A DNA stretch of 37,544 nt from Sulfurimonas sp. (GTDB taxonomy: Bacteria > Campylobacterota > Campylobacteria > Campylobacterales > Sulfurimonadaceae). Both the position numbers and the translations under genes were made by a program. This document shows, piece after piece, positions 7,080 to 27,144 of the stretch; within the stretch, counting starts at the first letter, position 1, and each line of letters begins with the position of its first letter. The DNA is taken from the NCBI RefSeq assembly GCF_032250635.1, contig NZ_JAVVFL010000001.1:1-37544 (forward strand), written 5' to 3'. The notes under the pieces were generated by a model. It saw nothing but the letters and a program-made list of their open reading frames with translations. It did no database searches and had not been told where the DNA came from.

Positions 7080-10000
7080 ATGATTCGACGTTTTTTAGAG
7101 TTTGCAATAGATAAACCGCTGCTCAACCATATTTTACTCACATTTATTTTTGTTCTCTCCATATTTGCATATGTCAATATCCCAAAAGAGATATTTCCTC
7201 CTATGAACATGGATAAAGTTACCATAGCTGGTGGATACGTCGGGACTTCTGCCGATGTGCTTGACAAGATGGTCGTTAAAACCATAGAGGATGAGCTTCA
7301 AAACATTAGTGAACTTGACATTATAAAAACGACCATTAAAAACGGCTCTTTTTCTATCATAGCGGACATAAAACCGGGTTCTGACAATGCGAATGTTTTA
7401 AATGACGTAAAAGATATAGTAAGCAGTGTAAAAAAAGATCTGCCCTCGGACATGGCAGAGCCGATTGCAAAGATACAGCTGCATAACTTTCCTCTCGCAC
7501 TTGTGGCACTGGCGGGCGATAGACCAAAAGAGGAGCTACTGCAAAGAGCGGAGGAGTTAAAGAGCGAACTGAGCAAACTTAAAGAGCTTAGCGAGATCAC
7601 TATCCGCGGCGATGCCGAAGAAGAGCTTGTCATAAAGATTAACGAGCAAAAAGTTTTGGCGTTTGGTCTGCAGCCTGCTTTGGCGGTAGAAGCGTTAAGA
7701 AACATAAGCTCTATTTTTCCCATAGGAACCATTAAAGACAGAGGTTCTCATCTTTACATCTCAACCTATAACGGAGAGAAAAATAAAGTAGATATTGAGA
7801 GCACAGTCATAAACGTAGGCGGTTCCAGAGTTCTAATAGGCGACATTGCGGATGTCTCTTTTAGACTTAGCGATGAGACGGAGCTTTCACACTACAATGG
7901 TGTGAGAAATATATCCATAAACGTCGCAAAAGCAAAAGAGGGAAATGCGATAGAGCTTGTGAAGAAGGTTAGAGCCCTTTTAAAGGAGAGCCAAAAGCTT
8001 CATCCTGAGCTTCAGTATGAGATATACGCGGATACTTCTGTGTGGATTAAAAATCGTTTAAATACCGTTTTTGCAAATATAACTTTTGGACTTATGCTTG
8101 TCTTTTTGGCGATGCTTATCTTTATAAACCGCGGCATAGCATTTGTTGTTGCCATCGGAATCCCTCTGAGTTTTATGATAGGGCTTATAGCCACCGAGAT
8201 TATGGGAGACAGCTTAAATATGCTCTCACTTTTAGGGGCACTCATAGCTCTTGGGATGCTGGTTGATGAAGCCATAGTCGTTGCCGAGAATATCTACAGG
8301 CACCTAGAGGAGGGGATGGACAGAAGAGAAGCGGCAATAGTCGGAGCGCAGGAGATGTTTCCGGCAGTTTTAACCGCTACTCTTACAACCGTTTTTGCAT
8401 TTTTACCTATGCTTCTGCTTAGCGGCGAGATGGGAATGTTTATAAAAATTATTCCTATCATGATAACCGTGCTGCTCCTCTCATCACTCTTTGAGGCGTT
8501 TTACTTCCTGCCGCTTCACGCGCACGACTTTTTAAAAGTATCGCACAGTGATAGTTCTACGAGAAAAATCTGGAAAAAACTCACCTCTTGGCATAATGCT
8601 GCATTGCATTTTGTTTTTAAAAAGAGATGGATTTCGCTCATAGTTATGGTTGTGACTATCTTATCTTTAACAGCCGTTATGATTAAAAACTCCAAATTTC
8701 AACTCTTCCCTGATTTTGACACCACGCAGGTCTACGTCTATGGAAAGGTAAATGTAAACAACGAGCTTGAAGATACAGAGGCTATTGTAACAGAGCTTGA
8801 GAGAGAGCTTTTGAAAAATATAAAAGGGGATGATATCTCCTCAATCACATCGGTAATCGGTTTTAAACTTGATGCCAAAAATATGGTTGAGACGGGGGAG
8901 CATCTTTTTCATATCTTTATAGATTTGAGTGAACGCGCCGCCGACAATGCTTTTGATGAGTATATTAGCCCATATCTCTCTATTGAGTACGATAAAGATA
9001 TCTTAAAAAGAGAGAGAGACGCAAGAGAGATTGCAAAAGATGTTGAGAGAGTCGTGGAGCCGTTTAGAACTCTTAAAGAGAGAGGAAACATTACCTATGA
9101 AGAGCTTGTCGTAAAGGTTCCGGGAGCCGGTGTTGTTGCCTCAGATGTTGAGATAAGCTTAAGTGCAAACGATGAGCAAAAAACAGTGCAGGGCATAAAA
9201 GAGCTTGAAGACGCACTTAGAGCGATAGAGGGCGTGAGCAATATCTCAAACGATGCAACGCTTGGCGAAAAAGAGCTGAAACTTCGCGTAAACGAGTATG
9301 GACAGCAGCTTGGCTTCAATGAGGAACAGATATCAAAAGAGCTTAGAGCGTACTACCTCAAAGGCGAGTACGGCAAGATGTTTAACGAGAGCGGACTTGT
9401 TCGCATAAAGATAGAGAGCGGCGTAAATGAGCAGATAAACTCCATAGACAGCATAGAGGTCAAGGTTCCCTCCAGCGATACTTTTGTTTTGCTAAAAGAT
9501 GTTTGTGATTTTATAATGACACAAGGATTTGTAGCTCTTCAAAAAGAGAACGGAGCAAGGATAAGAACGGTAGTTGCGTCCATAGATAAGAAGATTATCA
9601 CATCTGCTGAGGTCATGAAAAAACTTGAACCTACATTCTCGAAATTAAATAGTGATGGCTACAAACTTGATATAAAGGGAGAGGAGAAGGAAAACGCAAA
9701 AAACAAAAGAGAGCTGATGCAGTCAGCACTTATAGCAATCTTTTTGATTTTTATAACTCTTGTTTGGCTCTTTGACTCCATTAAAAAATCCCTCATCGTC
9801 ATAAGCACAATACCGCTCGTTCTGCTTGGCGTATTCTTCGGTCACATGGTCATGGGAATAAACCTAACAATGCCCGGAATGATAGGGGTAGTAGGACTCG
9901 CGGGCGTTGTCGTTAATGACGGACTTATTGTAGTGAATTTCATAAAAAATGCAACAAATACAGAAGAGCTTATGAAGCAGGCACAAACAAGATTAAGACC

Positions 10001-10214
10001 GATTTTACTGACATCGCTTACAACGGTTCTTGGACTATCAACACTTATATTTTTTGCTTCAGGGCAAGCCATGATACTCCAACCAATGGCAATATCCCTA
10101 GGTTTTGGAATAGCATGGGCAACTGTTTTAAACCTGATTTATGTACCGCTTCTATATGCAGTAGTTTTTAAAATCAAAGATGCACAGATATCAGAAAAAT
10201 CTAAGGTGGTCTAA
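7080..10214 (+). CDS. RND-family (AcrB/D/F) efflux transporter
   Basis: 1044 aa with two TM clusters; GMLVDEAIVVAENIYR, GVVVNDGL and RLRPILLTSLTT motifs. Confidence 0.95.
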   Translation: MIRRFLEFAIDKPLLNHILLTFIFVLSIFAYVNIPKEIFPPMNMDKVTIAGGYVGTSADVLDKMVVKTIEDELQNISELDIIKTTIKNGSFSIIADIKPGSDNANVLNDVKDIVSSVKKDLPSDMAEPIAKIQLHNFPLALVALAGDRPKEELLQRAEELKSELSKLKELSEITIRGDAEEELVIKINEQKVLAFGLQPALAVEALRNISSIFPIGTIKDRGSHLYISTYNGEKNKVDIESTVINVGGSRVLIGDIADVSFRLSDETELSHYNGVRNISINVAKAKEGNAIELVKKVRALLKESQKLHPELQYEIYADTSVWIKNRLNTVFANITFGLMLVFLAMLIFINRGIAFVVAIGIPLSFMIGLIATEIMGDSLNMLSLLGALIALGMLVDEAIVVAENIYRHLEEGMDRREAAIVGAQEMFPAVLTATLTTVFAFLPMLLLSGEMGMFIKIIPIMITVLLLSSLFEAFYFLPLHAHDFLKVSHSDSSTRKIWKKLTSWHNAALHFVFKKRWISLIVMVVTILSLTAVMIKNSKFQLFPDFDTTQVYVYGKVNVNNELEDTEAIVTELERELLKNIKGDDISSITSVIGFKLDAKNMVETGEHLFHIFIDLSERAADNAFDEYISPYLSIEYDKDILKRERDAREIAKDVERVVEPFRTLKERGNITYEELVVKVPGAGVVASDVEISLSANDEQKTVQGIKELEDALRAIEGVSNISNDATLGEKELKLRVNEYGQQLGFNEEQISKELRAYYLKGEYGKMFNESGLVRIKIESGVNEQINSIDSIEVKVPSSDTFVLLKDVCDFIMTQGFVALQKENGARIRTVVASIDKKIITSAEVMKKLEPTFSKLNSDGYKLDIKGEEKENAKNKRELMQSALIAIFLIFITLVWLFDSIKKSLIVISTIPLVLLGVFFGHMVMGINLTMPGMIGVVGLAGVVVNDGLIVVNFIKNATNTEELMKQAQTRLRPILLTSLTTVLGLSTLIFFASGQAMILQPMAISLGFGIAWATVLNLIYVPLLYAVVFKIKDAQISEKSKVV

Positions 10215-10216: not shown

Positions 10217-10222
10217 TATAAT
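10217..10222 (+). promoter_or_regulatory. sigma70 -10 box of the host tRNA locus
   Basis: TATAAT directly after the RND stop codon and 36 bp before the tRNA fragment. Confidence 0.65.
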
Positions 10223-10258: not shown

Positions 10259-10301
10259 GGGTTCTTAGCTCAGTTGGTTAGAGCCCCCCGCTCATAACGG
10301 G
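10259..10301 (+). pseudogene. 5' half of a tRNA-CAU gene broken after the anticodon arm (probable prophage junction)
   Basis: GGGTTCTTAGCTCAGTTGGTTAGAGCCCCCCG-CTCATAA-CGGG, followed by non-tRNA sequence; no T-arm or 3' acceptor strand. Confidence 0.85.
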
Positions 10302-10358
10302 TTTGTGAAAAGTTCACAAAGTGCTGTTTTGTAGGTGTTCTAAGTAGGTTTATTTTTT

Positions 10359-10381
10359 TTGGGTACCGAGTTGGGTACCGA
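10359..10381 (+). repeat. tandem direct repeat TTGGGTACCGA x2 (candidate integrase arm-type sites)
   Basis: Exact 11-mer at 10359-10369 and 10371-10381, about 60 bp inside the junction. Confidence 0.55.
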
Positions 10382-10396
10382 CTTCATGTTTCAAAT

Positions 10397-10473
10397 GGGC
10401 TTTTAACTCAGTTGGTTAGAGTCCCCCGCTCATAACGGGGTTGTCGCAGGTTCGAGCCCTGCAAAGCCCACCA
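10397..10473 (+). tRNA. tRNA with CAU anticodon (probably Ile2/lysidine type; elongator Met not excluded)
   Basis: 77-nt cloverleaf: GGGCTTT/AAAGCCC acceptor, ACTC/GAGT D-stem, CCCCG-CTCATAA-CGGGG anticodon arm, GCAGG-TTCGAGC-CCTGC T-arm and encoded CCA. The G1:C72 pair argues against an initiator tRNA. Confidence 0.93.
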
Positions 10474-10474
10474 T

Positions 10475-11152
10475 TTATGAAACATTTTCCGCAGTTTGCA
10501 TATCAATAGCTTTTTTATGTTCTGCTTTCATCAGCTGCTCTAACTGCTCAACAGTCATAGAGTTCAATTCCTCAGCACTATAATTTCCATTCGCATTAAA
10601 GATAACAGTATCCGGACTTTTTCCAAACCTTGCTTCTTTTGCTAGTTTATGTATCTCACTACTTGCTTTGATGTCCGCTTGCTTAACCCTTGTGATATCT
10701 TTTTTAACTTGGTTAGACAAAACAATGCTGGAGAGCATAGAGTTTTTAAAGAGCTGTGCATCAAAGTAGTCAGCTTGTACACTCGCGAGAAGTGTCATGT
10801 CCGTTTCTATACGCGCTTGAAGTTCTGCATTATCGCTTCCGATATCTAAGATACCATCTACTTCAAGGTCGCCTTTCTTACTCACTCCATAGTATTTATT
10901 GAGTTTGTTTTTCATCTCGTCATACACGGAGGTCGCTTCTAACTCCTCTCGTAGCTTCTTTGCAGTGAGAGCAACTTTGTTAGCTTTTGAGCCTTGTAGC
11001 CAAATTCCACCGTACTCATCTCTATCGTCATTTTTCCAATCGCTCAAAGTAGAGACGCTTACCGCCTCATCTTTGCTTATGTCCGTAAGAGACTTGTCCA
11101 TAACCTCAAACAAAGCCCTACATCTAAAACGAATCTCTAAATCATGTGCCAT
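10475..11152 (-). CDS. HTH protein, probable terminase small subunit
   Basis: N-terminal HTH (SLTDISKDEAVSVSTLSDWK), helical core and a TerS-like tail (ELNSMTVEQLEQL). Confidence 0.55.
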   Translation of the reverse strand: MAHDLEIRFRCRALFEVMDKSLTDISKDEAVSVSTLSDWKNDDRDEYGGIWLQGSKANKVALTAKKLREELEATSVYDEMKNKLNKYYGVSKKGDLEVDGILDIGSDNAELQARIETDMTLLASVQADYFDAQLFKNSMLSSIVLSNQVKKDITRVKQADIKASSEIHKLAKEARFGKSPDTVIFNANGNYSAEELNSMTVEQLEQLMKAEHKKAIDMQTAENVS

Positions 11153-14100
11153 CTATTTCCCCTCAAACTTTTTAAGCTCTTTTTCTAGCGTCTCGCTTAC
11201 GCCTTTAAAAATCTCTGTTCTTTTCTCATAAGCAGCGTTGATGCGCTTCTCTTTCTCTGCCTTGCTAAGTTTCTTATCATAAGTGATATGCTCAACCCTA
11301 TTTTTTATATTAGTAAGCTTGCTTGCATATCTTGCCATCAATCTACTAACTTGAACGTATGCTTTTTTCTCATCAGCACTCATGTACTCAGTAATATTTT
11401 TCCCACCATCTATAAAAGCTTTTTTCTTTTTTGCCTCAAAGCTTGCTTTAACTCCGCCAGCCTTTCGCATAAGTTCATAATATTTCTCGCTGTAAGCTGT
11501 GCGCGTTTCAACCTCCTTGCCTCTAAAGCGGTATGTTAAAAACTCTAAAGCATTTCTTGCAAACGGTCTTGCTCCCCAATCTTTTTCATTCCACAACATA
11601 TTTTCCGTAGTTTCCTCTACCATCTTCGCAGTAAGCCCTAGGTAGCCATCAATATAATGCTGCATCAGAATTGGACTTGCACCAGTAAGCTCGCCTGCCT
11701 TTTTATAAAGAAGCGGCGTGAAGTTCATGTATTGGTCACTCTTGTCATCAATGTTTTCCAAGTAACTTGGAACAATGTCTCCACCTGTCCAGTTCTTGTT
11801 TGTCATATCTTCAAGTATAGGTTGAAATAAACCACTTACGTCTCCTATGCTAAACATAGTCTTTATTCCCCAGACAAAATCCGCTGCTGCCTCTTTGCCA
11901 TGCTTTGTGTAAATTCCATCTGCGACAATCTCTGGCATAGTAGCAAACGCAAAACCAATATCGTAAGGGCGAGGTATCTTGATGTGCTGATCACCTATGA
12001 AGAAATGCCAGTACATAAGCTTACTATCGCGAGTGAGTTTTTTATAGCGCTCATCGTCTCTGTTTGCCGACCATAGTGCAAGAGTTATAACAGAGATAAG
12101 CCCTCCAGCTGCGTAGAGTCTTAGTTTGTGCGCTTGCAGCTCTCCTAGTTGATTTTTAAATTTTACTGCATTGGATAATTTCATTTCTCCATTGAGAGAG
12201 AATATGCGTCTTGCAGTTTTATCCATACCGTTGATACCAGCTTTCATAAACGGAACGGTTGCTAAGAAGCCAGTCCACGTTCTGTTGCTTCCTTTAATAG
12301 TAAAGTCTGTACTGACCTCGTTACCCTCAAATGCTGCCTGCATATTACTCTTGCCAGAGTTTGTAGCAAGTAAAAACTCTCCTATTCTAGTTCCGTACTC
12401 AAATGTATCAGCACCATACGCCATTGCGGATAGAAGCTTGTTTATTACCTCAAACCCTCTATTTACCTCTAGCATACCCATAGCATCCACATCTCCGCCT
12501 AGAGTAGTTCTTCTTGTTCCATAGCCGCCGCCGCTTGCCATAAAGTTTTTATAGACATCTGTTTTCATGACAAAATGGTACATGCCGCGTACAGATGTCA
12601 CAACCGGAATAAACTTGTTCTTAGAGAGAACAGAAGCACTTACTGTGTCTCTTACAAAGTTTGTGCCGTAAAATAGAGGATTGTTTGTAATGTTCCAAGT
12701 CATTACATTTTTAGCACTCATCAAGTATTGAACAAGCTCGTTATAGTTTGCAGATCCAAAAGATGTAAGACTATCTACAAGAGCAGCATCATGAACTTCA
12801 AAGTAAATCTTTTTGCCGTTGATGATTACAGTCTCTATATACCCTGTTTGAGAAGTAGGCTTATGCCCATGCGTCCAAAACTCTAAAGCGGATGGATTGT
12901 CAATCAAGTTCTGCTCTATCTCATTTACATCTATAATGATGTCGGCATTGATATCTCCGCTAAGTATCATTCCGTCTTTTGCAACAGTGATTCCAAGTTG
13001 CGCCATAAGTTGTGCCACTTTTTTCGCTTGCTGCGCTATGTCAGATTTTACAAGTTTATTTTCTGCGCTTACTTTTGTTGCAAACACTCCACCCATATCG
13101 CTATCATCTAGCATTTTGAAAAATACCGATTTCCCACGGGAAATTAAAGCTTGTTTGATGTTGCTCTCGATTCCACCAATGATATTCTCCATGATGTTAC
13201 CTAAAGAGTGTGTGCCTCCGGTAAGTCTTTGACCTATCTTTGCCGGAGGAACTGCTCCGTTTTGCACGCTCTCTGTAACTCTATGAAAAGGTACATAGTT
13301 TTTGTTCATCTCTTGAAAATTCGCTTTTTGCTCAGGAGTGATTAGGTTCATGCCAACATAAAAGTCAAGCATCGCATCGTTAAACTCTTGATACTCATTG
13401 AAGATTGTCTCAAATTCAGGATACTTCTGCGCGAGTAAGAGTCCAGCGTCTATCTCTTGCTCTGTTATGAGGTTCTCTCTTCCTTGCCCTTTAAGCTCCG
13501 AAGCTCTCATCGCGACAAGATAATCAGATAGAAGTCTCACTCGCTCCTCAGATACTTTAGTTGCAGGAGCAAAAATATCGTTAAGAGCTTTGCCACTATA
13601 AGTGATATCTCCGTTAGCTTTAACGCTAGGTACGCCAAAGTGCATAGCTGTGTGCATCAAAGAGCTTGCGTGTTCTGCTAGTTGAAGTATCTTATAAGGA
13701 CTTTCAATCGCATCTGTTGCAACATCGCCACGGATTGCCGCTTCTATGCGCTTAATGCTATGAACTTTATCTATTGCCGCTTGTCTGATGTCCTTACTTA
13801 TCTCCGCTTGACTTCTCTGTATCTTCTTTGCAGTAGAATTAAGCTCTCCTCCTTGCTTGCTTCTTAGTGTTGCAGCGGCTCCTTGATAGTAAAACTGGTG
13901 CATCCCTATTTGTAGCATCTCCATTTTTGCTTGGAGGTTTTTATCTTTTGCTAAACGCGCTTCAAAATCTTTTACCATATTTGGCGCGACTAGAGTAAGT
14001 GTATTGTAGTTTGTAAGCCACAAACGAACGAACTCAGCAAAACCCTCGTTTATGACTTTTTTAGGGTCTGTGGTGTAGCTAAGCGCTTTTACTTCCTCTT

Positions 14101-17100
14101 TATTTTTTAGGATGATACTTCTAAAGAAACTATCTTTTGCATCCTTGCTTTTGTTATTGTGAAAGAAGTCTAAATAGTGAGCCATCTCATGCGCCATTAT
14201 TTCAACATCGCTATAGTTTTTAAGACGAATTGAGCTGTCTTTTCTTTTATATATGCCGAGGGCGCTTTTACCTTTTATCTTACCGTCATAAAGTCTATTG
14301 CCTATTATATCGCTTACATAGATACGTAAACTATCAGCATTGATTGGCTTATCTGCCGCAGGGAGTTTTACTTCTCTTTTGTTAAGCGTGATCGTATCAC
14401 TCAAAGGGCGAGAAGGAATACCGCTCACTGAATAGTTTGGAACATAGTTGATGCCGGCTTCATCATACCCATTCGCACGCGCATAAAAGTTTGTCTCTTC
14501 TATCTGCTTCTGCTCTTTAGGCGTAGGCTTTTTAGAGTAAGAGATAGTCTCCGGCTCTCTGTCTGCCAAGTAACTCTCTATCTCCGCTGCGCTCTTGCCC
14601 TCGCTCTTTAAAATCTGCTCAAGCGTGTAGGCTGTTTTGATTTTATCTATGCTTACATTTTTCCCATCATTCGTAAACTCATCAGTAATAAACTTCGTCT
14701 CTGCCTCGTGTGATGCTTTTTGCTCTTTGCGCTCATTTGCCTTAGCTTCTATCTCGGCAATTTCTACTTCTATACCTTGAATAGTATTTTCATACTTTGC
14801 TTTTCTCTCAACTAAGCCTTGAATATGCTTATCTAACTTCTCTTTTTTCTCTGCTTCATCCTTGATGCCCTCATACTTTGGAAAATTTTGAGGCATAAGG
14901 TTTTCATCTGCCCCTTTTATTGCATCGCTGTAGTTTTTTATTGAGCCTTGTTTTGTTTTTATATCTGCATCAAGCTTAGTGATGATATTTTTGAGATTGT
15001 TCGCGTCTACAACAGCATTTTCTATGACTCTCTGTTTTCTAAGTCTCTCTCTCTCAAATGGGTCACGCTCTAAATCTATAACCGCTTGATACGGGTCGGT
15101 AGTGTTTGAGTTGTCTATTATGGAAACACCATCCACCACAACTAAGTCCTCATTTTCAGAGAACTTATACATATCGTTAAACCCTCTTTTTTTCATAACA
15201 ATGTCATAACTTCTTTTGTCAAAAGTTCCAAGTTGAAAAAATTGGTGTACGCGCACTTCTGTATTTTCATTCCCTTGACGCACGCCACGGTTAGAGCGCT
15301 GCTCTATCTCATCGGGGCGGAAAGGAATATCAAGCTGGTAGATATCAGTTGTTTTTCTGTTTAGGTCAACACCAACACCAAGCTTGCTTGTATTTCCAAT
15401 AATTACTTTTATGTCGCCATTGTTATACATGTCCATAATTTTATTTAGCATATCAGGTTTTATGGAACTCTTTGAGACTTTGCCTGTCGTAGGATTTACA
15501 AAAGCGGCACCATTCACAAAGACAACCTCTTTCTCATCAAACAAGCCAGTTGCTAAGATTTTCTCTCGTGTCTCAGCGTGCGTGGATGTAACACTCCCGT
15601 CGCTGTTTTTTACAGAGAGTCTATCCAAGAAGATGATCTGCCCACTATTGCTATTTTCTTTGTATTGATTTGTAATCAACTCTATCGTTTTCAGTATCTT
15701 ATTATTTTCAGATGTTGCGATATCGTTGTCTATAACATCAAAAAGGTCATCGGGCGTAAATTGAGATTTACCTTTTGTTCCAACATCATAAAGTCTTAAA
15801 TCAATACTAGCACTTCTCCCCGCTCCCATAGCAACAAGAGCTATCTCAACTTCGCTAGAGTCTAGCAACCCGCTTTTTATCTTCTTTGCATCTTCCATCG
15901 CAGCTAAAATTCTATGCTGCACGTCTTGAAAAATCTTCTCTCCGGCACTGGAGAGCTTAAGATAGTGCTGCACATCTACCTGCTTTGGTCGTGGAAGCTC
16001 CGGCATATCTTTAAAGCCTTTGTAATCCACAAATCTATCTAGTATCTTGCCCATCCAATCAAGGTTTTTCATGCTTGCTAAGGCTTCTCTTTTTACTATC
16101 TTGCCTGCTGAGTCTGTAGTTTCAAGCTCCTCTATATCGTAAAAAGTATCAACAAAATCTCTAGAAGAGACAATACCATACTCGTAAAGGATGCTCTCGT
16201 CTAAATGCTGTAAAAGTGTGTAAAGCTCCAGTGGCTTATTTGGCGTTGGCGTACCTGTAAGCAAGATGACATTGTTGCCGTTATTATTTTGAGAAACATA
16301 TTTGCTTTTAAATCTAAAGTCATAGCTTCGCATACTTCCAAGGGTCGCGCTATGAGGTTCAGCGCCCTCGAGGATATCCTTTGCTGTCAGTGCTTTTCCA
16401 TTTTTATCGGAGTAGCTCATCACTACACTTGCCCCAAGTCCACCTTTGATATCTTTACCGCCAAGCCCGATATTTTTATAGTATTGCACTTCATCTGCTA
16501 TCAACCCATCAAAGCCCATCTTTGCAAAATCAAACTCAACATCACTACCGTATGCTTGTTTAAGTCCATTTTTTAAAGCTCTTTTTTTAGCCTCTGCCGA
16601 TACGCCTTTTTTCTTTGATTTTGTATCGCCTGCCTCAACTTCCTCTATGGCTTGTATCTGCTCAACCAAATCATCTACATACTCACTCATTACATCACTA
16701 GGTAGCCCAAACTTTTGGAACATTGTATCGCCAATTATTGTGAAGTCGTAGCGATTGTTTGCAAGATCAAAAGCCATCTGCTCTTTTTCTTCACGGCTTA
16801 GTTGTGTCCACTCTTTTGCATTTCCTTTATTTACACCGCTTTTTACTTTTGGAAATTCAAACACTGCGGCATGTGGATAAAGTTCTTTAACACTGTTTTC
16901 CCACTGAGCAATTGTGTTTACGGGAACAACAAAGAGAGGCTTTTTCATAACGCCTTGACCTATAAGGTTCATAACTGCAACTATTGCCGTGATTGTCTTG
17001 CCTCCTCCGGGTGCAAAAGCTAAAACACCTTTTTTATTAAACACCAATTTTTCAGCGCCCTGTAGTTGATGTGATTGCATAGCGAAGGATTTGTCTCTAA

Positions 17101-20100
17101 ATGTTTTAGGAAGCTCACGAAGTAGTACGCCTGTCATCTCAGGACGGACATAAAAGTTTGAGTATCTGTTGTACTCGTCTGTAAGTATTTCAGCTAAGCC
17201 TTGTTTTTCTATATACTGCATTACTTGTGGAACTAAAACCTCGCTCAAAAGCTTTGTAGCTTCCATGGTCCTTTGGATGTTCTCTTGATCGCTCTCGTCT
17301 TTGCCTTTTGGAGCAAGAGCTTTTTTGTTTAGGTATCTATTGTAAAGCTCTGCTTTCATACCGTCGCCATCAAACACATCGGAGCGAACAAATAGCTCAC
17401 CGCTTTTCTCTGTGCTTATTGCATCGCGAACAGCGTTAGGTAACCAGCTCTCTCCACCCTTAACTGTGATATTTTTAAAAGGTATCTGCTCAGGAACTAT
17501 TGCTTTTAGCTTTATGTACTGCTCGTTGTATTCGTCTATACTAAGTCCATGGTATTTGCGTAGCCCCTCAACAGAATCAAGTTTTGCGTAAACATTGCCG
17601 CTGTAGTACATAAAGTCAAGCTGTATCTCGTTTACTCCGCTGCGAACATAGCTACGATTTTTTACCAACTCTTGCATATCCTCTTTGCTTAAGTAGTCAT
17701 ACTCTTTTGAGGTATCTATGGCTGTGTCGCCAGTGGAATAAAAAAGTGCACGCTCTATTAGTGGAGAGTTTGCATCTACTTCAAGTACGCCACTATCTTT
17801 AAATCTCGTCTGCTCTCCATAGATAGGCGCAGGAGTAAAGTCTTTATCAAAGTAGCTCATAGATTCTTTAAGAGCTATGTCGGAGCGGTGCTCTTTCATA
17901 AACTTTTTAAGTGCTAAGTCGTTATGAGGAGATTTCTCAAACCGTTGCTTGTAGTTTTGTATCTCCGCAAGTGCTGTGTTTATCATTGTTTTGTCTTCAA
18001 GACGAAGACCATCTTCTGTAAGCATTTTTATCTTTTCAAGCAAGAGCGCCTTTTGTGCGTTATCGCCTTTTAGAACTTCTCCAAACATAGCTTTTTTAGA
18101 AGTGTCGCTAAATGAAAGCTCCTGCGCGTAGTAAACCATTTTCCCATCTGCAAACTCGCTGTGAGGTTTAGCTTCGCTTACCAACTTCATCGGGATCTTG
18201 TTTTGTGCTGCATACTCTGTAGCTTCTTCTACGTTTTTAAAACTATGCTGCTCGTCTTGTGTCTTCTTAGCTATTTTATACGGCTCATAACTAATCTTGA
18301 TGTTTTCAAACTTTGGCTCGCCGCGAACTATCCAGCCCTCTTTGCCCATCTTTGTTTTATCGTTTGCTACAACCACTTCATCGCCTAGCAAATTCTCAGG
18401 ATGCTGCAATAGGTATTCGTTCATAGCAAAACCGTCTTTGTTACCAATGTTTACAAACTGATTATTCACATCTTCTTGACGACTCTTTACTCCCTCGGGT
18501 CGTTTTTGGATGAAGATAATATCTATCATGGTATCGGTATGAGCATTTTTAGCTTGTGACTTCTCGGGAAGTCTAAATGCACCTATGATATCGCCTCTGT
18601 CCATTAAATACTTTCTAAGATGTCTCGCTGTAGTTGTTCCATCCATTGTTCCGGTACTTGTCATAAACGCGATAACACCGTTCTCTTTTACTTTATCCAT
18701 AGAGTGAGCAAAGTAAAAGTTATGTATCGCTTTAAACGCAGGTTTGATTGTCATAGCATGCTCACGCATAAGCATCTCTGTACTCGCAAAAGGAACATTA
18801 GAAACTATAAGGTCGTAATTCTTGCCCTCAAAGGTCTCATAAGTGTCTGCAAAGAAGTTTTTGATTTGAGGATAAAGTCTTTTTGTGATTTCAATGTTTG
18901 TCGTATCTATATCCACAACATCCCATGAAGCATTTGGCATAAACCCAACAAAGTTGCCACTGCCAACTGCCGGCTCTAAAATTTTATCCATAGGAACGTC
19001 TGCATCTGCTAAGGCTTTGTAGATTGATTGTACTGTAGCGTAGTTTGTGTAGTGCTGATTTACTGAGTTTTCGTTTGCCTCTCCAAGTCCACCCTCTCCG
19101 GTATAGTGGCGAAGTATCTCTCGGTCTGCTTCTGTAATCTCTTCTAGTGGTTTTTTTATGATTTCGAGCGTAGCGTCATTGAACTTTTTGCGTTGACCTT
19201 TTGTAAGCTCAACTGGAGTTCTCCCCTCTAGTGAATAGCTCTCAGTGCTATTTGGTTCATCAGATCTTGGTAATACTCTGTTTGCATCAGTTGTCTGTTG
19301 CTTAGGTTGTTTATTTCCGCCATCGGTTTTGTATCCGTCCACTCCGCCATATCCATTGGATACTTCATCTTGAGTGCTTCCATTCGTACCAAGTCCGTCA
19401 GGTCGTCTATCGCCCTCTGATACTGACTTGTCACTTCCTTGATTTGTTTTTGTGTCAAGTGTGTTTTGTTTTGAAGTTGGTACTCCAGCTGTATTATTTG
19501 TTCGCTCAACAGTTTGACTGCCTGCGTCATTTCCTCTGTTCTCATTTCCTCTATTCTCCTCTCTCTCAACTATATCCATTATATCACGAACAAACTCAGA
19601 TGAAGTTAGTTTGCTATTTTTTATCCATCTGTTGCTGCCGTCTTTTTTCGTTGCTTTGTTGGTAGTTCTGTAAAGCTGCCCATCAGTAAGGCGCATATCA
19701 TCGCCCATAGTGTACGCATCGTGTATGCCATCTTCTATGAGATCATAACCAAGCGAGACATAAACACCAATATCACTATTTGGCTTATAGAGTTTAAACG
19801 AAACACTGCCACCAGCAGGAGCAAGGTTGTTGCTAACTCCCATATATGAAAGAGGTTTGCCTTTTTTATCTACTGCAACCTCCCATCCACCAAGAGCTTT
19901 TTGCAACTGCTGCACATATTTCGCTACATCTTTTTGAAGCTTCTTTGATACCTCACGACTAGGAATTTCATTCATAATCCCCTTAGTTGTATAAACCTTT
20001 GTCGTGTCAAAGATTATTTTAGCATCGCTGCTTCCGGATACACCTCTATCGTTAGCTCCCTTGCTTTCTCCTGCGTATGTCCCTTTGCTAGTAGGCTCTT

Positions 20101-22918
20101 GTAGAGTGGTATCGCTTTTTGTCTCAGTTGGTAAAGTGCCTGCGTCCGTTTTTGTGTTTGCTGCGGGGTCTCTGTTGTATTTTCCATTTTCCTCTTCCTC
20201 TAAGTATGTGTCTAAAAGTCTTGCAAGAGCTGATGCTTCTTGCTCTTCAAGCTCGTTTAAATTCCAGTTAGCCTGTAGCTCGTTAAATCTTTTGATATCC
20301 TCTGCTAAGTGCGGACTGCCGGCTCTATGCAGCTGCTCCATAACTCTGTCGGAGAGTTCGCTATGCTTGCCATTTTTAGCATTAGTGATAGCGGTAATAA
20401 CATCTTCATATTTTACCACACTATTGACTATACCCTTCGCCCACTCAGGAACGATATACTCTGTGCTTGCAGTTGTATCAAAAAGAGCGTTTCTCGTACC
20501 CTCAAAAGCAAGTGAGTTTTGAGTGCCTTGCTTCGTTTTTGTGGCAGTAGACAAAATGCCGTACGCGCGCGCATACTCATCTTGTACAAAATTGTCATAC
20601 TGTGATGCTGCATATTCAGGAGAATTATCAAGCACTCCCAAGTCTGCTTTGAGTTTAGCAAGCAACTCTGTGTCTATCTCCCCTTTTCCAAGTCTTGTGA
20701 TATCACTCTTGGTAAGTAGAAAATCTGCTCTGTAGTTTCGCTCATACTGCGCCTTGTCATAAGTATTTTTATCAGTACCGCCATGCCCATCAAGTTCTCT
20801 TCCTGCACCAGCCTGTACAAGGTTGTTTACACTTGCCGCATCTTTGGCATAAATATCTTTGCGCATATCAAGAAGCGATTTATAACGAGGGTGATTTTGT
20901 AGCTCTGTAAATTCTGTATCTTGCGCCTCTTTTGTCTCCACGACATTGATGTCGTTAACATCCGCTTTCGCCTCCGGCTCAGGCTCTCCGATAACAGGCT
21001 TTTCGATTACGGGTGCGGGAGTTGATGTTGCTGTTTCATTCACACTTGCACTCAAATCCTCAAGTTCAAACTTCTCATCTTGCGTAAGTTCATCATCCGT
21101 TTTTTCTTGCAACTCTTGAAGTCGTGCCGTATCTACCGTTGGTGCATCCGCAAACCCTTTAGGCTTCAACTCCTCATCCACTTGTAAAGGATTACTTGAC
21201 AACTCGGCTCTAAGCTCATTCCAGCCTGTATCTATTGCGTTGAGTCCGTTATTGTCACTCACGTTTAAGCCATTGGCTTTAGCATCTGCTACTATCTGCT
21301 CTTGCATCTCAACACTATCAACAGCTTCAACAGGCACGACTTGCTCAGGATGATTGATGACTAAATTTTGAAACTCATCTTGAATAGTTTTTACTTTACC
21401 ACGCAGATCGTTTGAAAAGTTTATATACCCTGCATCGTCAACGGTAGTAACTAGCCCACTGCCCAATACCTGCTTATTATAAGCATCTTGCACATACGCC
21501 TCACGCGCTTTTTCTTGCTTCGCCTGCGATAGAGTGTTAAATATTTCTGTTCCTGTAGCGGTTGCGCCACTTATTCCGGCACCGGCACCAGAGCCTGCCA
21601 CAAATCCGGCAAGAGCATCGTCCGCGTACTCTGCTGGACTGCTTAGTCCTTTTTCCGTACCTACCTCTTCGCCAAACTTCTCTATAGGATTTTGTAGAGA
21701 TTCAGTAGTTCCCTCTACTACAAATCCTTTTTGCATTTGTTTACCTACGGTAGTTATTGCGTCTTTGAGCGAACCATCAAGCGCATCTTTTCCTACACTC
21801 TTGACAACATCTTCCGTTGTTGCCTTAAGACCAAGCCTATCAAGGATTATACTTCCCATGGTTGTTGGTGCAGTCATAAGGTAATCGTTTGCCGTTGGCT
21901 CTTTGCGGTTGTTATTTTCTGCTCTGTGCTCTGCACTCTCTTGTTGTCTCGCTGCATAGTAAAGAGGCATTGCCGCTACCATCTCTGCCATATCAGGAGC
22001 GCTTACCACACCCTCGCTTCCAATATAGTTGCCTAGCTCTTGCCAAGCATCTACATCAAACACTCCGCCGCTGCTAAATCCTTTTTTTACCTCTTCCCAG
22101 CTATGTGTAGGCTTTTGAACTATGGATCCATCGTGTAGTTCCATCTTGTTTTTTTCATACACGAAATCATTAAGCTTATCACTTGCATTTTTAAACCAAT
22201 CCGCGCGCTTTTTATTTTGTGCATCCAGCGCCTCAGTGGTTATGCCGAGGTACTCCATGGGTGTCTTTATATTTCCAAGTAGATTGTATGTGCCTTGAAT
22301 CGCATTTGCAGTAAGCTCGTTCACGCGGTTTACGACTCTTTTGCCAAGCTCCCATTCGCTAGCTTCTGGATTGACATAGTCTTGATTTTCGCCCATAGAG
22401 ATAGTTCTTTTGTTTGCCTCTATGGTTTGGGCATCTTGCTCAGCAGGCGAAATCATTCTTGCAGGTGTGTCGTTAAATATTTCAACAGCAGTTCGCATTG
22501 CAGGCTTAAACTCTCTCGTAGCGGTTACATCATCAGTTTGCACGATATCTGATGTGAGAGCATCTATCATAAAAGGCTTTTCAGCAGTAGCGGCTTTTGT
22601 CTGTATCGGGAGAGAACCGTCTCTGTTTGGTGCAACTGCATTATGTAGGGCAGGGTCGGTTACATCAGTATCCTCTTTGTATACAGGAGCAAACGCGCGC
22701 TCTATTGCAGATACTCCTTTGTCAAGGGTGTCGCTAACATCAAAGTCAAGCTGTGCATTTACAAAGTTCTCTTTAATGCGTGTCTGCTCTTGAGCATCAA
22801 GCGCTAAAAACTCAGCATCTGCCATTTCTGTATCGAAGTAGTTTGTAGTAATTGTCTGTTTTTTGGAGAGGTCAAGCGATTGAAAATCTTTATCAGAGAA
22901 GATGTCTATCTGTTTCAA
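11153..22918 (-). CDS. giant polyvalent virion/ejection protein: N6-adenine MTase + SNF2-like helicase (DarB-like) + HExxH zincin-like motif + LPD38-like C-terminus
   Basis: 3921 aa. MTase motifs ILEPAVGSGNF (~18950-18980) and IVSNVPF (~18790); helicase motifs APGGGKT (~17000), DEVQ (~16490), LTGTP and EQRSNRGVRQGN; HEMAH (~14180); KIPRPYDIG and NKNWTGGDIVP near the end; Gly/Ala-rich hydrophobic segment near the N-terminus. Confidence 0.88.
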   Translation of the reverse strand: MKQIDIFSDKDFQSLDLSKKQTITTNYFDTEMADAEFLALDAQEQTRIKENFVNAQLDFDVSDTLDKGVSAIERAFAPVYKEDTDVTDPALHNAVAPNRDGSLPIQTKAATAEKPFMIDALTSDIVQTDDVTATREFKPAMRTAVEIFNDTPARMISPAEQDAQTIEANKRTISMGENQDYVNPEASEWELGKRVVNRVNELTANAIQGTYNLLGNIKTPMEYLGITTEALDAQNKKRADWFKNASDKLNDFVYEKNKMELHDGSIVQKPTHSWEEVKKGFSSGGVFDVDAWQELGNYIGSEGVVSAPDMAEMVAAMPLYYAARQQESAEHRAENNNRKEPTANDYLMTAPTTMGSIILDRLGLKATTEDVVKSVGKDALDGSLKDAITTVGKQMQKGFVVEGTTESLQNPIEKFGEEVGTEKGLSSPAEYADDALAGFVAGSGAGAGISGATATGTEIFNTLSQAKQEKAREAYVQDAYNKQVLGSGLVTTVDDAGYINFSNDLRGKVKTIQDEFQNLVINHPEQVVPVEAVDSVEMQEQIVADAKANGLNVSDNNGLNAIDTGWNELRAELSSNPLQVDEELKPKGFADAPTVDTARLQELQEKTDDELTQDEKFELEDLSASVNETATSTPAPVIEKPVIGEPEPEAKADVNDINVVETKEAQDTEFTELQNHPRYKSLLDMRKDIYAKDAASVNNLVQAGAGRELDGHGGTDKNTYDKAQYERNYRADFLLTKSDITRLGKGEIDTELLAKLKADLGVLDNSPEYAASQYDNFVQDEYARAYGILSTATKTKQGTQNSLAFEGTRNALFDTTASTEYIVPEWAKGIVNSVVKYEDVITAITNAKNGKHSELSDRVMEQLHRAGSPHLAEDIKRFNELQANWNLNELEEQEASALARLLDTYLEEEENGKYNRDPAANTKTDAGTLPTETKSDTTLQEPTSKGTYAGESKGANDRGVSGSSDAKIIFDTTKVYTTKGIMNEIPSREVSKKLQKDVAKYVQQLQKALGGWEVAVDKKGKPLSYMGVSNNLAPAGGSVSFKLYKPNSDIGVYVSLGYDLIEDGIHDAYTMGDDMRLTDGQLYRTTNKATKKDGSNRWIKNSKLTSSEFVRDIMDIVEREENRGNENRGNDAGSQTVERTNNTAGVPTSKQNTLDTKTNQGSDKSVSEGDRRPDGLGTNGSTQDEVSNGYGGVDGYKTDGGNKQPKQQTTDANRVLPRSDEPNSTESYSLEGRTPVELTKGQRKKFNDATLEIIKKPLEEITEADREILRHYTGEGGLGEANENSVNQHYTNYATVQSIYKALADADVPMDKILEPAVGSGNFVGFMPNASWDVVDIDTTNIEITKRLYPQIKNFFADTYETFEGKNYDLIVSNVPFASTEMLMREHAMTIKPAFKAIHNFYFAHSMDKVKENGVIAFMTSTGTMDGTTTARHLRKYLMDRGDIIGAFRLPEKSQAKNAHTDTMIDIIFIQKRPEGVKSRQEDVNNQFVNIGNKDGFAMNEYLLQHPENLLGDEVVVANDKTKMGKEGWIVRGEPKFENIKISYEPYKIAKKTQDEQHSFKNVEEATEYAAQNKIPMKLVSEAKPHSEFADGKMVYYAQELSFSDTSKKAMFGEVLKGDNAQKALLLEKIKMLTEDGLRLEDKTMINTALAEIQNYKQRFEKSPHNDLALKKFMKEHRSDIALKESMSYFDKDFTPAPIYGEQTRFKDSGVLEVDANSPLIERALFYSTGDTAIDTSKEYDYLSKEDMQELVKNRSYVRSGVNEIQLDFMYYSGNVYAKLDSVEGLRKYHGLSIDEYNEQYIKLKAIVPEQIPFKNITVKGGESWLPNAVRDAISTEKSGELFVRSDVFDGDGMKAELYNRYLNKKALAPKGKDESDQENIQRTMEATKLLSEVLVPQVMQYIEKQGLAEILTDEYNRYSNFYVRPEMTGVLLRELPKTFRDKSFAMQSHQLQGAEKLVFNKKGVLAFAPGGGKTITAIVAVMNLIGQGVMKKPLFVVPVNTIAQWENSVKELYPHAAVFEFPKVKSGVNKGNAKEWTQLSREEKEQMAFDLANNRYDFTIIGDTMFQKFGLPSDVMSEYVDDLVEQIQAIEEVEAGDTKSKKKGVSAEAKKRALKNGLKQAYGSDVEFDFAKMGFDGLIADEVQYYKNIGLGGKDIKGGLGASVVMSYSDKNGKALTAKDILEGAEPHSATLGSMRSYDFRFKSKYVSQNNNGNNVILLTGTPTPNKPLELYTLLQHLDESILYEYGIVSSRDFVDTFYDIEELETTDSAGKIVKREALASMKNLDWMGKILDRFVDYKGFKDMPELPRPKQVDVQHYLKLSSAGEKIFQDVQHRILAAMEDAKKIKSGLLDSSEVEIALVAMGAGRSASIDLRLYDVGTKGKSQFTPDDLFDVIDNDIATSENNKILKTIELITNQYKENSNSGQIIFLDRLSVKNSDGSVTSTHAETREKILATGLFDEKEVVFVNGAAFVNPTTGKVSKSSIKPDMLNKIMDMYNNGDIKVIIGNTSKLGVGVDLNRKTTDIYQLDIPFRPDEIEQRSNRGVRQGNENTEVRVHQFFQLGTFDKRSYDIVMKKRGFNDMYKFSENEDLVVVDGVSIIDNSNTTDPYQAVIDLERDPFERERLRKQRVIENAVVDANNLKNIITKLDADIKTKQGSIKNYSDAIKGADENLMPQNFPKYEGIKDEAEKKEKLDKHIQGLVERKAKYENTIQGIEVEIAEIEAKANERKEQKASHEAETKFITDEFTNDGKNVSIDKIKTAYTLEQILKSEGKSAAEIESYLADREPETISYSKKPTPKEQKQIEETNFYARANGYDEAGINYVPNYSVSGIPSRPLSDTITLNKREVKLPAADKPINADSLRIYVSDIIGNRLYDGKIKGKSALGIYKRKDSSIRLKNYSDVEIMAHEMAHYLDFFHNNKSKDAKDSFFRSIILKNKEEVKALSYTTDPKKVINEGFAEFVRLWLTNYNTLTLVAPNMVKDFEARLAKDKNLQAKMEMLQIGMHQFYYQGAAATLRSKQGGELNSTAKKIQRSQAEISKDIRQAAIDKVHSIKRIEAAIRGDVATDAIESPYKILQLAEHASSLMHTAMHFGVPSVKANGDITYSGKALNDIFAPATKVSEERVRLLSDYLVAMRASELKGQGRENLITEQEIDAGLLLAQKYPEFETIFNEYQEFNDAMLDFYVGMNLITPEQKANFQEMNKNYVPFHRVTESVQNGAVPPAKIGQRLTGGTHSLGNIMENIIGGIESNIKQALISRGKSVFFKMLDDSDMGGVFATKVSAENKLVKSDIAQQAKKVAQLMAQLGITVAKDGMILSGDINADIIIDVNEIEQNLIDNPSALEFWTHGHKPTSQTGYIETVIINGKKIYFEVHDAALVDSLTSFGSANYNELVQYLMSAKNVMTWNITNNPLFYGTNFVRDTVSASVLSKNKFIPVVTSVRGMYHFVMKTDVYKNFMASGGGYGTRRTTLGGDVDAMGMLEVNRGFEVINKLLSAMAYGADTFEYGTRIGEFLLATNSGKSNMQAAFEGNEVSTDFTIKGSNRTWTGFLATVPFMKAGINGMDKTARRIFSLNGEMKLSNAVKFKNQLGELQAHKLRLYAAGGLISVITLALWSANRDDERYKKLTRDSKLMYWHFFIGDQHIKIPRPYDIGFAFATMPEIVADGIYTKHGKEAAADFVWGIKTMFSIGDVSGLFQPILEDMTNKNWTGGDIVPSYLENIDDKSDQYMNFTPLLYKKAGELTGASPILMQHYIDGYLGLTAKMVEETTENMLWNEKDWGARPFARNALEFLTYRFRGKEVETRTAYSEKYYELMRKAGGVKASFEAKKKKAFIDGGKNITEYMSADEKKAYVQVSRLMARYASKLTNIKNRVEHITYDKKLSKAEKEKRINAAYEKRTEIFKGVSETLEKELKKFEGK
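19228..19545 (-). CDS. putative nested (+1 frame) 105-aa helical protein inside the giant gene
   Basis: AGGAG 10 nt before ATG 19545; MRTEEMTQAVKLLSEQIIQLEYQLQ...YYQDLMNQIALRAIH; co-extensive with a low-complexity linker of the main frame. Confidence 0.6.
   Translation of the reverse strand: MRTEEMTQAVKLLSEQIIQLEYQLQNKTHLTQKQIKEVTSQYQRAIDDLTDLVRMEALKMKYPMDMAEWTDTKPMAEINNLSNRQLMQTEYYQDLMNQIALRAIH
20014..20187 (-). CDS. putative nested (+1 frame) 57-aa protein inside the giant gene
   Basis: Not in the ORF track. GAGGAAGAGGAAA-ATG start; MENTTETPQQTQKRTQALYQLRQKAIPLYKSLLAKGHTQEKARELTIEVYPEAAMLK*. Confidence 0.55.
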   Translation of the reverse strand: MENTTETPQQTQKRTQALYQLRQKAIPLYKSLLAKGHTQEKARELTIEVYPEAAMLK

Positions 22919-22949
22919 TGGGAAGCCTTTATTGTTTTTATAAAGGCTT

Positions 22950-22984
22950 ATGTTAGCAAATAAAAAATGCTTAAGTGGGTTGTT
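22950..22984 (-). promoter_or_regulatory. phage late promoter, copy 1 (upstream of the giant gene)
   Basis: AACAACCCACTTAAGC-N13(T-rich)-TAACAT on the minus strand; the 16-mer is identical to copy 2. Confidence 0.7.
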
Positions 22985-22996
22985 AAAACATCATAC

Positions 22997-23920
22997 TTAT
23001 TTTTCGTAATCTTTCCAACTTTTCGCAGTCTTAGGCGCATCGCTTTCTTTTCTTTTTGCGTAGGCATCTTTAGTCTGTTTTCGTATAGACGCCAAGTCTT
23101 TAACGCCATTGTTTAAAAGGCTTGTTCCGTTCTCCAGAGCAAAGGCTGCTTCCTCTTTGCGCTCTGGGTCGATAGTAAACTGCCCTGTAACTTCATCATA
23201 CTCGCCGTACTCTTTGCCTATTGAGTTTTGCAGATCAAGGAGGTCTTTATTTAGTTTTCCTCCATTTGCACTTTCTGCTTTATAGAGCGCTGTTGCATGT
23301 TTGACATCTTTCTCTTTCGCCGCTAAGCTTGCCGCCGTTGTGTCTTTGTCTGTGAAGTATTTATCAAGCTCCATTATCGTCTTGCCATCTGCCATCTTGA
23401 TAAGCTGCTCGTTCTCTTTTGCAAAAGTATTAAAATCTTTATACTCTTTGCCAACTGCAACATTTTTAGCCTCATCGTTAAACTTACCTTGGAAGTGTGT
23501 ATCTGCGGCTTTAACTGCATCATCAGATATATTGCCATAGCCATTCCCAGTACGGTAGTTGTCTTTAAATAGCTTTAGATTTTCAGCACCGTCTACGCTT
23601 CTGTATGAGTTACTAAACGCATCATCGAGCTTCTTTGTCTCTCTCGTCTGTTTTGTCTCATCTATTGTATCAAGTGCTGCTATATTTTGTGTACCGTAGA
23701 GTTCTGTTTTTGCGGCTTCAGTTTTAAGCCTTGCTTCATCAGCAGCCATCTGTGACTTTTGCGCGTTGATGGTTGCATCTCTCTTCTCTCTATCGTCCAT
23801 GTTTTTGCCAATACTCACAAAGGCATCGCCAAAAGCTTTCGCGCCAAGTCCGGCATCACTTCCGACACCGCTCATATTCACACCCGCTGCATTACCCCGA
23901 AAACTGTCATACCATCCCAT
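22997..23920 (-). CDS. putative internal virion/ejection protein
   Basis: Gly/Ala-rich N-terminus followed by charged helical sequence; lies between the portal and the giant protein. Confidence 0.55.
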   Translation of the reverse strand: MGWYDSFRGNAAGVNMSGVGSDAGLGAKAFGDAFVSIGKNMDDREKRDATINAQKSQMAADEARLKTEAAKTELYGTQNIAALDTIDETKQTRETKKLDDAFSNSYRSVDGAENLKLFKDNYRTGNGYGNISDDAVKAADTHFQGKFNDEAKNVAVGKEYKDFNTFAKENEQLIKMADGKTIMELDKYFTDKDTTAASLAAKEKDVKHATALYKAESANGGKLNKDLLDLQNSIGKEYGEYDEVTGQFTIDPERKEEAAFALENGTSLLNNGVKDLASIRKQTKDAYAKRKESDAPKTAKSWKDYEK

Positions 23921-25791: not shown

Positions 25792-25799
25792 GCTGCGAC

Positions 25800-26087
25800 C
25801 TACACTGCTGTTGCAGGTTCTACGGCATCAACTTCATAATCATAGTCGTAAGGGTTCTTTTTTTTCTTATTGTTCACATTAAAAATGCTATCACTAAAAG
25901 CATCATCAAGATTCGTTTGCGCTTTGTCTATCTTTGCATTGTAGGCATCATCTTTTTGCTTCTCGTAAGCAAGCTGCTCTTTTTTTATCTTGTTTGCTTC
26001 TTTACCTGTTTCGTACTGACCCCATGCACCAGCGAGCGCACCTAGCCCTTGTATTGTCATAGAAGTATCTCCACTGTTCCAGCTCAT
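25800..26087 (-). CDS. small putative ejection/pilot protein
   Basis: GLGALAGAWG hydrophobic stretch followed by a short coiled coil. Confidence 0.45.
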   Translation of the reverse strand: MSWNSGDTSMTIQGLGALAGAWGQYETGKEANKIKKEQLAYEKQKDDAYNAKIDKAQTNLDDAFSDSIFNVNNKKKKNPYDYDYEVDAVEPATAV

Positions 26088-26088
26088 G

Positions 26089-26676
26089 TTAAATCCTTTG
26101 ATAATTTGATGTTATATTTTTAGCTCTTATAGGCTGTAACACTTTGAGTTTCATCATCTCTTGCTCATAGAGCCTAAGGTAGTGTAGGCTCAAAACTCTT
26201 TCTTTAGAGTTTCTCGTAGGCTTCTCATGTATCTCACTTAAAAACAGAAGTCTCAATGCTTTGTATTGCGTGTTTGGAACTTCTATCTCACAATTCTCAG
26301 TTGCTAACTCTTTTGCATATTTATATACAATGGTCGCGCTCATGGCGTTTGTAGGCATAAAACCTAAAAGCATAATATTCTTATCAAACGTGTAGCTGTT
26401 CTCATTAGCTCTGACATAGAAAAACTCTAAAGTTGCAAAATCAAGAGAGCGGTTGTCTATGCTTAGTGCTACGTTCTTGATTGGAGTATAGTCAAGGTAG
26501 TATTCTTGCTTGCCATCTACTATAGCTATGCTTTGTTTAGCTATAAAACAAGGCAAATCAAACTGCAAAGAGACATAAGCCCTTTGCAGTTTTAAAAGAA
26601 GCTCCTCATCTTTCCAATGCTCAGACTTCTCTTGTAGGTCAGAGCGTGTTTGTAAGATAAAATCACTTGCTTTCAT
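26089..26676 (-). CDS. putative head-tail adaptor protein
   Basis: FILQTRSDLQE...WKDEELLLKLQRA and IVDGKQEYYL resemble podovirus adaptor proteins; located after the capsid genes. Confidence 0.6.
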   Translation of the reverse strand: MKASDFILQTRSDLQEKSEHWKDEELLLKLQRAYVSLQFDLPCFIAKQSIAIVDGKQEYYLDYTPIKNVALSIDNRSLDFATLEFFYVRANENSYTFDKNIMLLGFMPTNAMSATIVYKYAKELATENCEIEVPNTQYKALRLLFLSEIHEKPTRNSKERVLSLHYLRLYEQEMMKLKVLQPIRAKNITSNYQRI

Positions 26677-26682
26677 TTCTCT

Positions 26683-27135: not shown

Positions 27136-27144
27136 AACCGCGAC

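Follow-up and report, generated by a model that had tools for sequence, protein, structure and literature searches.

A broken tRNA gene at the prophage border

The window, that is, the whole 37,544-nucleotide stretch of DNA analyzed here, belongs to a Sulfurimonas sp. genome (NCBI RefSeq GCF_032250635.1; here G000) whose 2.15-Mb assembly comprises 286 contigs. Host genes (rsmH, AcrB family) lead up to a tRNA-CAU gene that breaks off after its 5' half (10259-10301). It is followed by 95 bp of non-tRNA sequence (10302-10396) and a full 77-nt tRNA gene (10397-10473). From 10475 on, the gene content is that of a phage, with a DarB-like giant protein, a P22-like portal, capsid, lysin, holin, and a diversity-generating retroelement (DGR). 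The features of the locus and of the far prophage end are as follows.

7080..10214, + strand: host AcrB-family gene flanking the site (annotation; adjoins the intact tRNA gene in the closest relatives too)
10217..10222, + strand: host -10 box TATAAT, 36 nt before the broken gene (position weight matrix [PWM] score 11.7, training median 11.9; relatives)
10259..10301, + strand: 5' half of the host tRNA-CAU, assigned to tRNA-Ile2, to the end of the shared core; host side of attL (relatives' alignment; acceptor pairing)
10291..10301, + strand: common core of 11 bp, the 7-nt anticodon loop plus 4 nt (attL/attR identity)
10302..10396, + strand: 95-bp att arm of the phage, containing a T-tract (neither a -10 box nor a strong terminator found)
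10359..10382, + strand: two tandem 12-bp repeats, putative integrase arm-type sites (repeat search)
10397..10473, + strand: complete phage-borne tRNA-CAU, Ile2 class, CCA encoded (ARAGORN, Rfam, comparison)
10475..11152, - strand: terminal phage open reading frame (ORF), 225 aa, weak DUF1804 match below cut-off (annotation; homologs next to attP)
10302..37544, strand not applicable: window part of a prophage of about 47.5-48 kb that continues on the rest of contig C235, then C190 and C20 (colinearity with G104)
C20:628-584, - strand: host tRNA 3' half (BLAST, acceptor pairing)
C20:783-1856, + strand: tyrosine integrase, 357 aa, adjoining attR (PF00589; R, HxxR, H, and Y motifs)

Relatives align with the window as far as position 10301 and then run on into an intact tRNA gene, and the acceptor strand of the fragment pairs with the 3' half on C20. 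ARAGORN detected the full gene at 10397-10473 alone, calling none at the fragment or on C20, and Rfam scored the full copy at 65.3 bits and the fragment at 23.7 bits (cut-off, 29 bits). The similarity between fragment and full copy (49-nt match, 90% identity, E value of 2e-12) is not a chance match. The layout described in the first-pass annotation, a half-tRNA, about 95 bp of non-tRNA sequence, and a full tRNA, is thus borne out by the sequence, ARAGORN, Rfam, and BLAST. The acceptor 5' strands differ as it had claimed, and G10:C25 of the fragment is A10:U25 in the full copy. The 12-bp motif of the att arm occurs four times in the 2.15-Mb assembly, twice in the window arm and twice adjoining the integrase gene on C20, and the tandem repeats are likely integrase arm-type sites. 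Homologs of the terminal ORF (64-92% identical) adjoin attP in 10 of 22 loci tested, with short remnants in 2 further loci.

The far end of the prophage

A BLAST search of the genome with the full tRNA identified a 3' half on C20 that starts at the anticodon loop. Its acceptor strand pairs with the window fragment and not with the full copy, from whose 3' half it differs by 11 changes. At this junction, phage replication genes and the integrase gene are followed by the 3' half and then by host DNA. The first-pass annotation had proposed finding the other prophage end as a check; it lies on C20 and carries the host 3' half. A related prophage of 47,929 bp, located on a single contig of G104, is colinear with C235, C190, and C20 and has the same two junctions. 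C190 and C20 overlap by 55 nt; C235 and C190 do not overlap, and their order rests on G104. Via the 55-nt overlap (L195 10070-10124), C20 branches off C190 some 390 bp short of the C190 end, which likely reflects a variant strain or a prophage cassette that varies. Both prophage ends lie on one contig in G104 and in G219, with the layout and 11-bp core found in G000, and attL and attR are identical over exactly 11 bp in all three genomes. A different contig of G219, the third whole example, carries the empty site in intact form, which fits a mixed population.

Rejoining the host sides yields a perfect tRNA that is 88-92% identical to the empty sites of four relatives. attL runs into the phage arm after 11 bp, with no tRNA 3' part duplicated there, and neither end rebuilds the host gene because attP lacks the tRNA 3' half. 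The initial claim that the host gene is not restored is therefore true at both ends, the far junction carrying the 3' half only. This rules out that the gene is rebuilt at the far junction. An older scar is excluded because the fragment is part of a live attL, whose arm repeats match, and the integrase is intact. That 10397-10473 is the host gene after ordinary 3' integration is excluded by the intact sites of relatives, the allele distribution, and the far 3' half, which is of the host type and does not duplicate the 3' end of 10397-10473. Prophage-free relatives do not share the arrangement of fragment plus full tRNA; they continue into the intact gene.

As to other prophage cargo, the DGR (window 34345-37454; C190 [L195] 8640-9479) comprises a reverse transcriptase, Avd, and a template repeat at 35523-35638. 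In one target, the tail-fiber gene, template adenines account for 10 of 11 differences, and in the other, a second Mtd-like gene on C190, for 9 of 12. The DarB-like protein of 3921 aa (window 11153-22918) has N6-methylase, SNF2 helicase, and LPD38 domains. A 197-aa tyrosine recombinase together with a ParA/ParB pair on C190 (L195 4832-6947) suggests a plasmid-like state or a resolvase.

Isotype, copy number, and likely need

The class to which the tRNAs of the window belong has a CAU anticodon and a G1:C72 pair and is neither the initiator nor the elongator-Met class. Three closed or near-closed relatives (G012, G016, G017) each possess two to three initiator genes, one elongator-class gene, and one gene of the window class, and their separate elongator class best matches E. 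coli tRNA-Met. The window class shares G1-G3, U12:A23, C29:G41, and A73 with tRNA-Ile(GAU) of the genus, and the phage copy also shares C4:G69. U12:A23 and C29:G41 presumably play a role for the tRNA-Ile class. Such a role has been described for C4:G69 (PMC12514573). By eye, 61 of 77 positions match tRNA-Ile2 of H. pylori, a TilS substrate (PMC12514573 supplement), versus 51 of 77 for the other elongator class. ARAGORN labels 10397-10473 as Met, and BLAST against E. coli was ambiguous, with tRNA-Ile as the best full-length match and tRNA-Met as most of the partial matches; BLAST against phage records gave no clear isotype either.

Among 118 genomes of the genus, the 5'-half pattern matched once in 101, not at all in 9, and twice in 8, the latter representing contig-end overlaps (five genomes) or a fragment plus a full gene (three genomes). 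Together with the gene classes of the relatives, in which the CAU genes were counted, these numbers lend good support to the earlier assumption of Ile2 identity and single copy. That the disrupted gene is of the tRNA-Ile2 class and single-copy in Sulfurimonas is thus a well-supported assignment, made by sequence comparison. Several tRNAs (Ala, Ile-GAU, Cys, elongator Met) are absent from the 286-contig assembly of G000, so that a second Ile2 copy in this genome is conceivable; a unique Ile2 gene is nevertheless likely. G000 has a tilS gene, no UAU tRNA was found in its assembly, and AUA accounts for 33 per 1000 codons and occurs in 99.8% of 1224 crude host ORFs. The phage tRNA would be expected to acquire lysidine at C34 and be charged with Ile via TilS and IleRS.

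The phage-borne tRNA

Of the 77 positions, 15 are different between the host and the phage copy; 12 of these form six compensated pairs (two in the acceptor stem, one in the D-stem, three in the T-stem), and 3 are loop bases. The six compensated pairs, with no pair broken, argue for selection on the phage tRNA. Free-phage attP loci (L034, L036, L038, L101) carry a whole tRNA at the position equivalent to 10397-10473. Of 334 family genomes, 11 contain a tRNA of the A10:U25 type, which no genus has as its normal allele; nine of these tRNAs lie behind a broken half, one behind arm repeats at a contig edge (G139), and one behind the host promoter (G044). The attP loci, the allele distribution, and the compensated pairs confirm the view that the full copy is a diverged, phage-borne gene under selection. 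It has the same anticodon and class as the disrupted host tRNA, its isotype being assigned from sequence only.

Promoter and probable read-through

A generic sigma-70 scan returned no site because it requires a -35 box, and a -10 PWM was used instead. Its training set consisted of 23 related sites belonging to one gene, all of which have TATAAT or TAAAAT 15-39 nt before the intact gene; the PWM models the -10 region alone and misses a TAAAAT box visible by eye in G261 and G262. In G005, G008, and G017, TATAAT precedes the intact gene by 36 nt, just as it precedes the broken gene in the window. We scored 13 spacers between fragment or core and tRNA (9 of lysogens or remnants and 4 of attP, one just 56 nt long). 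In 12 of the 13, no -10 box of this promoter type scored above shuffled sequences; the best score in the window spacer was -0.7, compared to a mean of 2.7 for shuffles. Only 4 nt ahead of the replacement tRNA, the G159 spacer has a TATAAT box (score 8.7; uncorrected P = 0.028); that of G219 contains a weaker candidate site (7.4, P = 0.078). Upstream of the nine fragments, the PWM detected a strong box in five; in G261 and G262, TAAAAT precedes the fragment by eye, the box of G100 precedes an older fragment that has decayed, and the G219 sequence is too short.

No terminator-like hairpin was found before the T-tract of the att arm, and in the fold of the predicted precursor the tRNA pairs with itself only. 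An inverted repeat between leader and spacer (10227-10238 with 10325-10336) is absent from eight other spacers that were compared and was treated as a chance occurrence. Given the lack of a -10 box in the spacer, the lack of a terminator, and the self-contained fold of the tRNA, read-through from the host promoter is the simplest reading, and the phage tRNA is likely transcribed in this way. The earlier proposal to this effect finds its support in the -10 motif test. In the circular, excised form of the phage, transcription of the tRNA could depend on a TATAAT-like hexamer close to where the integrase gene starts.

Two designs of attP

Classical phages that integrate into tRNA genes with a long core carry a copy of the 3' half in attP, which restores the gene at attL. 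Seven viral loci with a related integrase comprised three short-core attP, three classical attP, and one attR. The short-core sites consist of a short core, arm repeats, and a whole CAU tRNA, in this order; the classical sites contain the duplicated 3' half and no tRNA gene. With one further short-core (L101) and two further long-core loci (L043, L106), nine attP were classified: four with a short core and a whole tRNA (L034, L036, L038, L101) and five with a long core and no tRNA (L035, L037, L039, L043, L106). None of the nine is a short-core attP without a tRNA at this site. Most other loci are attR ends of nonassignable type, some of them at other tRNAs. The integrases of this matched set are 59-77% identical to the 357-aa integrase. 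On the integrase tree, in which 13 rows are unlabelled and the root is arbitrary, so that no direction of change is read from it, the short-core label needs 6 changes among 7 rows, clustering no more than shuffles do, and the long-core label needs 3 changes. The short-core form is scattered on the tree, and the two attP designs are thus not two clean clades.

Related integrases at L044, L105, L138, L140, and L142 adjoin 3' halves of other tRNAs (Arg, initiator Met, and Gly by eye), indicating that the lineage has switched targets. Two more 3' halves of the host type, separated by 17 kb, occur in G159:C43 (L226, L229) together with an integrase of 44% identity, meaning that several elements share one site.

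Spread and fate in the family

The pattern of fragment plus full tRNA matched 11 of 353 family genomes, of which 9 are real and fall into three genera; two matches (G056, G183) were dropped, as they consist of an intact Ile2 gene followed by tRNA-Met. An exact pattern search of the other families in the order sample, 352 genomes in all, did not find it. The junction type of the window recurs in eight other genomes and on a 5.2-kb contig of run X3. In G159, the tRNA module borders the holin and lysin of another phage type. In G138 (G138:C1:9430-16439; L191, L251), the replacement tRNA is followed by a second arm-repeat pair and an island with MmeI-type restriction-modification and Abi-like genes, which is a second element at the phage-borne tRNA.

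Four genomes (G100, G261, G262, G044; 93-99% complete) have kept only the phage-type tRNA and contain neither a host-type 3' half nor a related integrase. Beside the tRNA, none of the proteins of the G000 prophage were found in these genomes, apart from a 23-residue remnant in G044. G058, which is 82% complete, resembles them. We infer that these four are decayed prophages, in which the phage tRNA would now be the host's gene. G100 (L189, G100:C26:58450-58794) shows a host promoter, a decayed 5' fragment, an arm remnant, a second fragment, an arm, and the full tRNA; the two stacked fragments are stacked scars. In G044 (L074, G044:C4:32600-32850), the host promoter is immediately followed by the phage-type tRNA, the only Ile2-type gene found in the genome, and then by a degraded remnant of the terminal phage ORF.

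Proposed mechanism and alternative explanations

With a probability of roughly 80%, we propose that the prophage integrated via the 11-bp core into what is likely the sole tRNA-Ile2 gene of its host and that the tRNA of its attachment arm replaces the lost function by use of the host promoter. The 357-aa tyrosine integrase would act within the anticodon loop, joining attP to attB; the two resulting junctions are seen. With an attP devoid of the 3' half, the gene would be rebuilt at neither end, as found, and a whole tRNA-CAU would be placed 95 bp behind the fragment, on the same strand and 174 nt after the host -10 box, as it lies in the window. Transcription from the host promoter would then run through fragment and arm, normal processing would free the tRNA, and TilS and IleRS would turn it into an AUA reader, as its class suggests. 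The lysogen would depend on the phage tRNA for as long as the host gene has not been restored by precise excision; should the prophage decay, that tRNA would remain as the gene of the host, as the four genomes lacking a related integrase suggest.

It is tempting to extend this to a wider scenario, which we favor more cautiously: a promoterless attP tRNA would be switched on by integration through promoter capture, imprecise loss of the prophage would fix the phage allele and create a new attB, repeated rounds would swap alleles, and sister phages would alternate attP types on one integrase lineage. G000, G104, and G219, then G100, G261, and G262, and finally G044 may represent stages of this allele replacement.

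The same integration and replacement could operate with a tRNA that has its own promoter in the att arm, which would make the system a published one without a twist. Fionnbharth sets a precedent, its tRNA having a strong promoter (PMC10865867, as far as its accessible text goes), G159 has the TATAAT box 4 nt before the tRNA, and our PWM covers one promoter type only. Against this speak the 12 of 13 spacers that are no better than shuffles, the limited space (about 20 nt between core and arm repeats in G104, and 15-19 nt between arm repeats and tRNA), and the phage-type gene directly behind the host promoter in G044, and we regard an own promoter as unlikely. Still less probable, in our opinion, is a dispensable replacement, owing to an unassembled second Ile2 gene or to a target that is an elongator Met tRNA with a spare copy. 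The fragmented assembly, without the elongator Met class and other tRNAs, the ARAGORN label, and the ambiguous E. coli matches would fit such a case; yet each of the three closed or near-closed relatives has a single gene of this class besides two to three initiators and a separate elongator class matching E. coli tRNA-Met, the compensated, unbroken pairs point to selection, and a tRNA-less short-core attP at this site is missing among the nine classified loci.

Ordinary integration or an artifact, with 10397-10473 as the host gene and the fragment as an old scar, a split-tRNA half, or a mis-assembly, is hardly credible. Stacked older scars do exist in the family (G100), and the window stems from a fragmented assembly. 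However, the far end is a host-type 3' half 11 changes away from that of 10397-10473, the A10:U25 type (11 of 334 genomes) is the normal allele of no genus, and the junction recurs in the eight other genomes and the contig of run X3. We therefore retain replacement of the disrupted tRNA-Ile2 by the phage-borne copy, read from the host promoter, as the preferred reading.

Relation to known systems

tRNA-dependent lysogeny was defined by Guerrero-Bustamante and Hatfull in 2024 for the actinobacteriophages Fionnbharth/K4, cluster L, and Gaia (PMC10865867). The accessible text of that study includes Ile2 cases in the Gordonia phages OneUp and Mollymur, demonstrates that the Fionnbharth tRNA has a promoter, and refers to Lj965. 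The Sulfurimonas prophage is a well-supported case of this lysogeny, as its defining features that can be tested on sequence were found: like the actinobacteriophages, as far as described there, it combines a tyrosine integrase, a core in a tRNA gene (8-17 bp in theirs), no reconstruction, and a phage tRNA of the same isotype, and it has close relatives with a long core and no tRNA (theirs being Boilgate and Ximenita). It differs in its host, a member of the Campylobacterota, and the phage itself is podovirus-like and not related to theirs. In Fionnbharth, the tRNA has a promoter of its own and overlaps gene 37, and cluster L copies lie mostly in tRNA regions (PMC10865867), whereas the Sulfurimonas phage tRNA is located inside the att arm in host orientation, with no -10 box found.

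Likely new are the phylum, the location of a probably promoterless tRNA inside attP, the pairing of two attP designs, and the series of apparent domestication stages. The open literature, as far as its searchable text reaches, holds no Campylobacterota case and no promoterless attP tRNA; figures or supplements may show such a layout. Two papers on Sulfurimonas phages (PMC11531552, PMC11290706) do not mention tRNA replacement in their accessible text. Our analysis would extend tRNA-dependent lysogeny to the Campylobacterota, addressing whether it occurs beyond Actinobacteria, which PMC10865867, in the text available, left open. The matched set of short-core and long-core attP makes testable which form came first, another open question of that study. 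It also suggests a route by which an essential tRNA gene could be permanently swapped for a phage allele, in a layout that would let the host keep a viral gene. Annotation tools based on 3' duplication would misplace this prophage end and label the phage tRNA as host tRNA-Met.

tRNA replacement has also been reported for rhizobial prophages (PMC8631192, PMC11476347), and for phiLM21-like prophages no replacement was found (PMC12429752), according to the accessible parts of these papers. The vTRX32-1-like Rhizobium phages (PMC8631192, 2021) are T7-like and infect Alphaproteobacteria, unlike the Sulfurimonas phage; their tRNA lacks the core, so that it would block re-integration, whereas the Sulfurimonas phage tRNA keeps it. 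The Lo5R7ANS-like prophages of Sinorhizobium meliloti (PMC11476347, 2024) resemble our case in central disruption of the tRNA and a diverged prophage copy (80.6% identity there, 80.5% in Sulfurimonas) but target tRNA-Leu(UAG), in the two cases described. Integrase family, crossover, and arm repeats are shared with the classical long-core sites L035, L037, L039, L043, and L106 and the lysogen G063; in contrast to these, the Sulfurimonas phage carries no duplicated 3' half, and the host gene is therefore not rebuilt.
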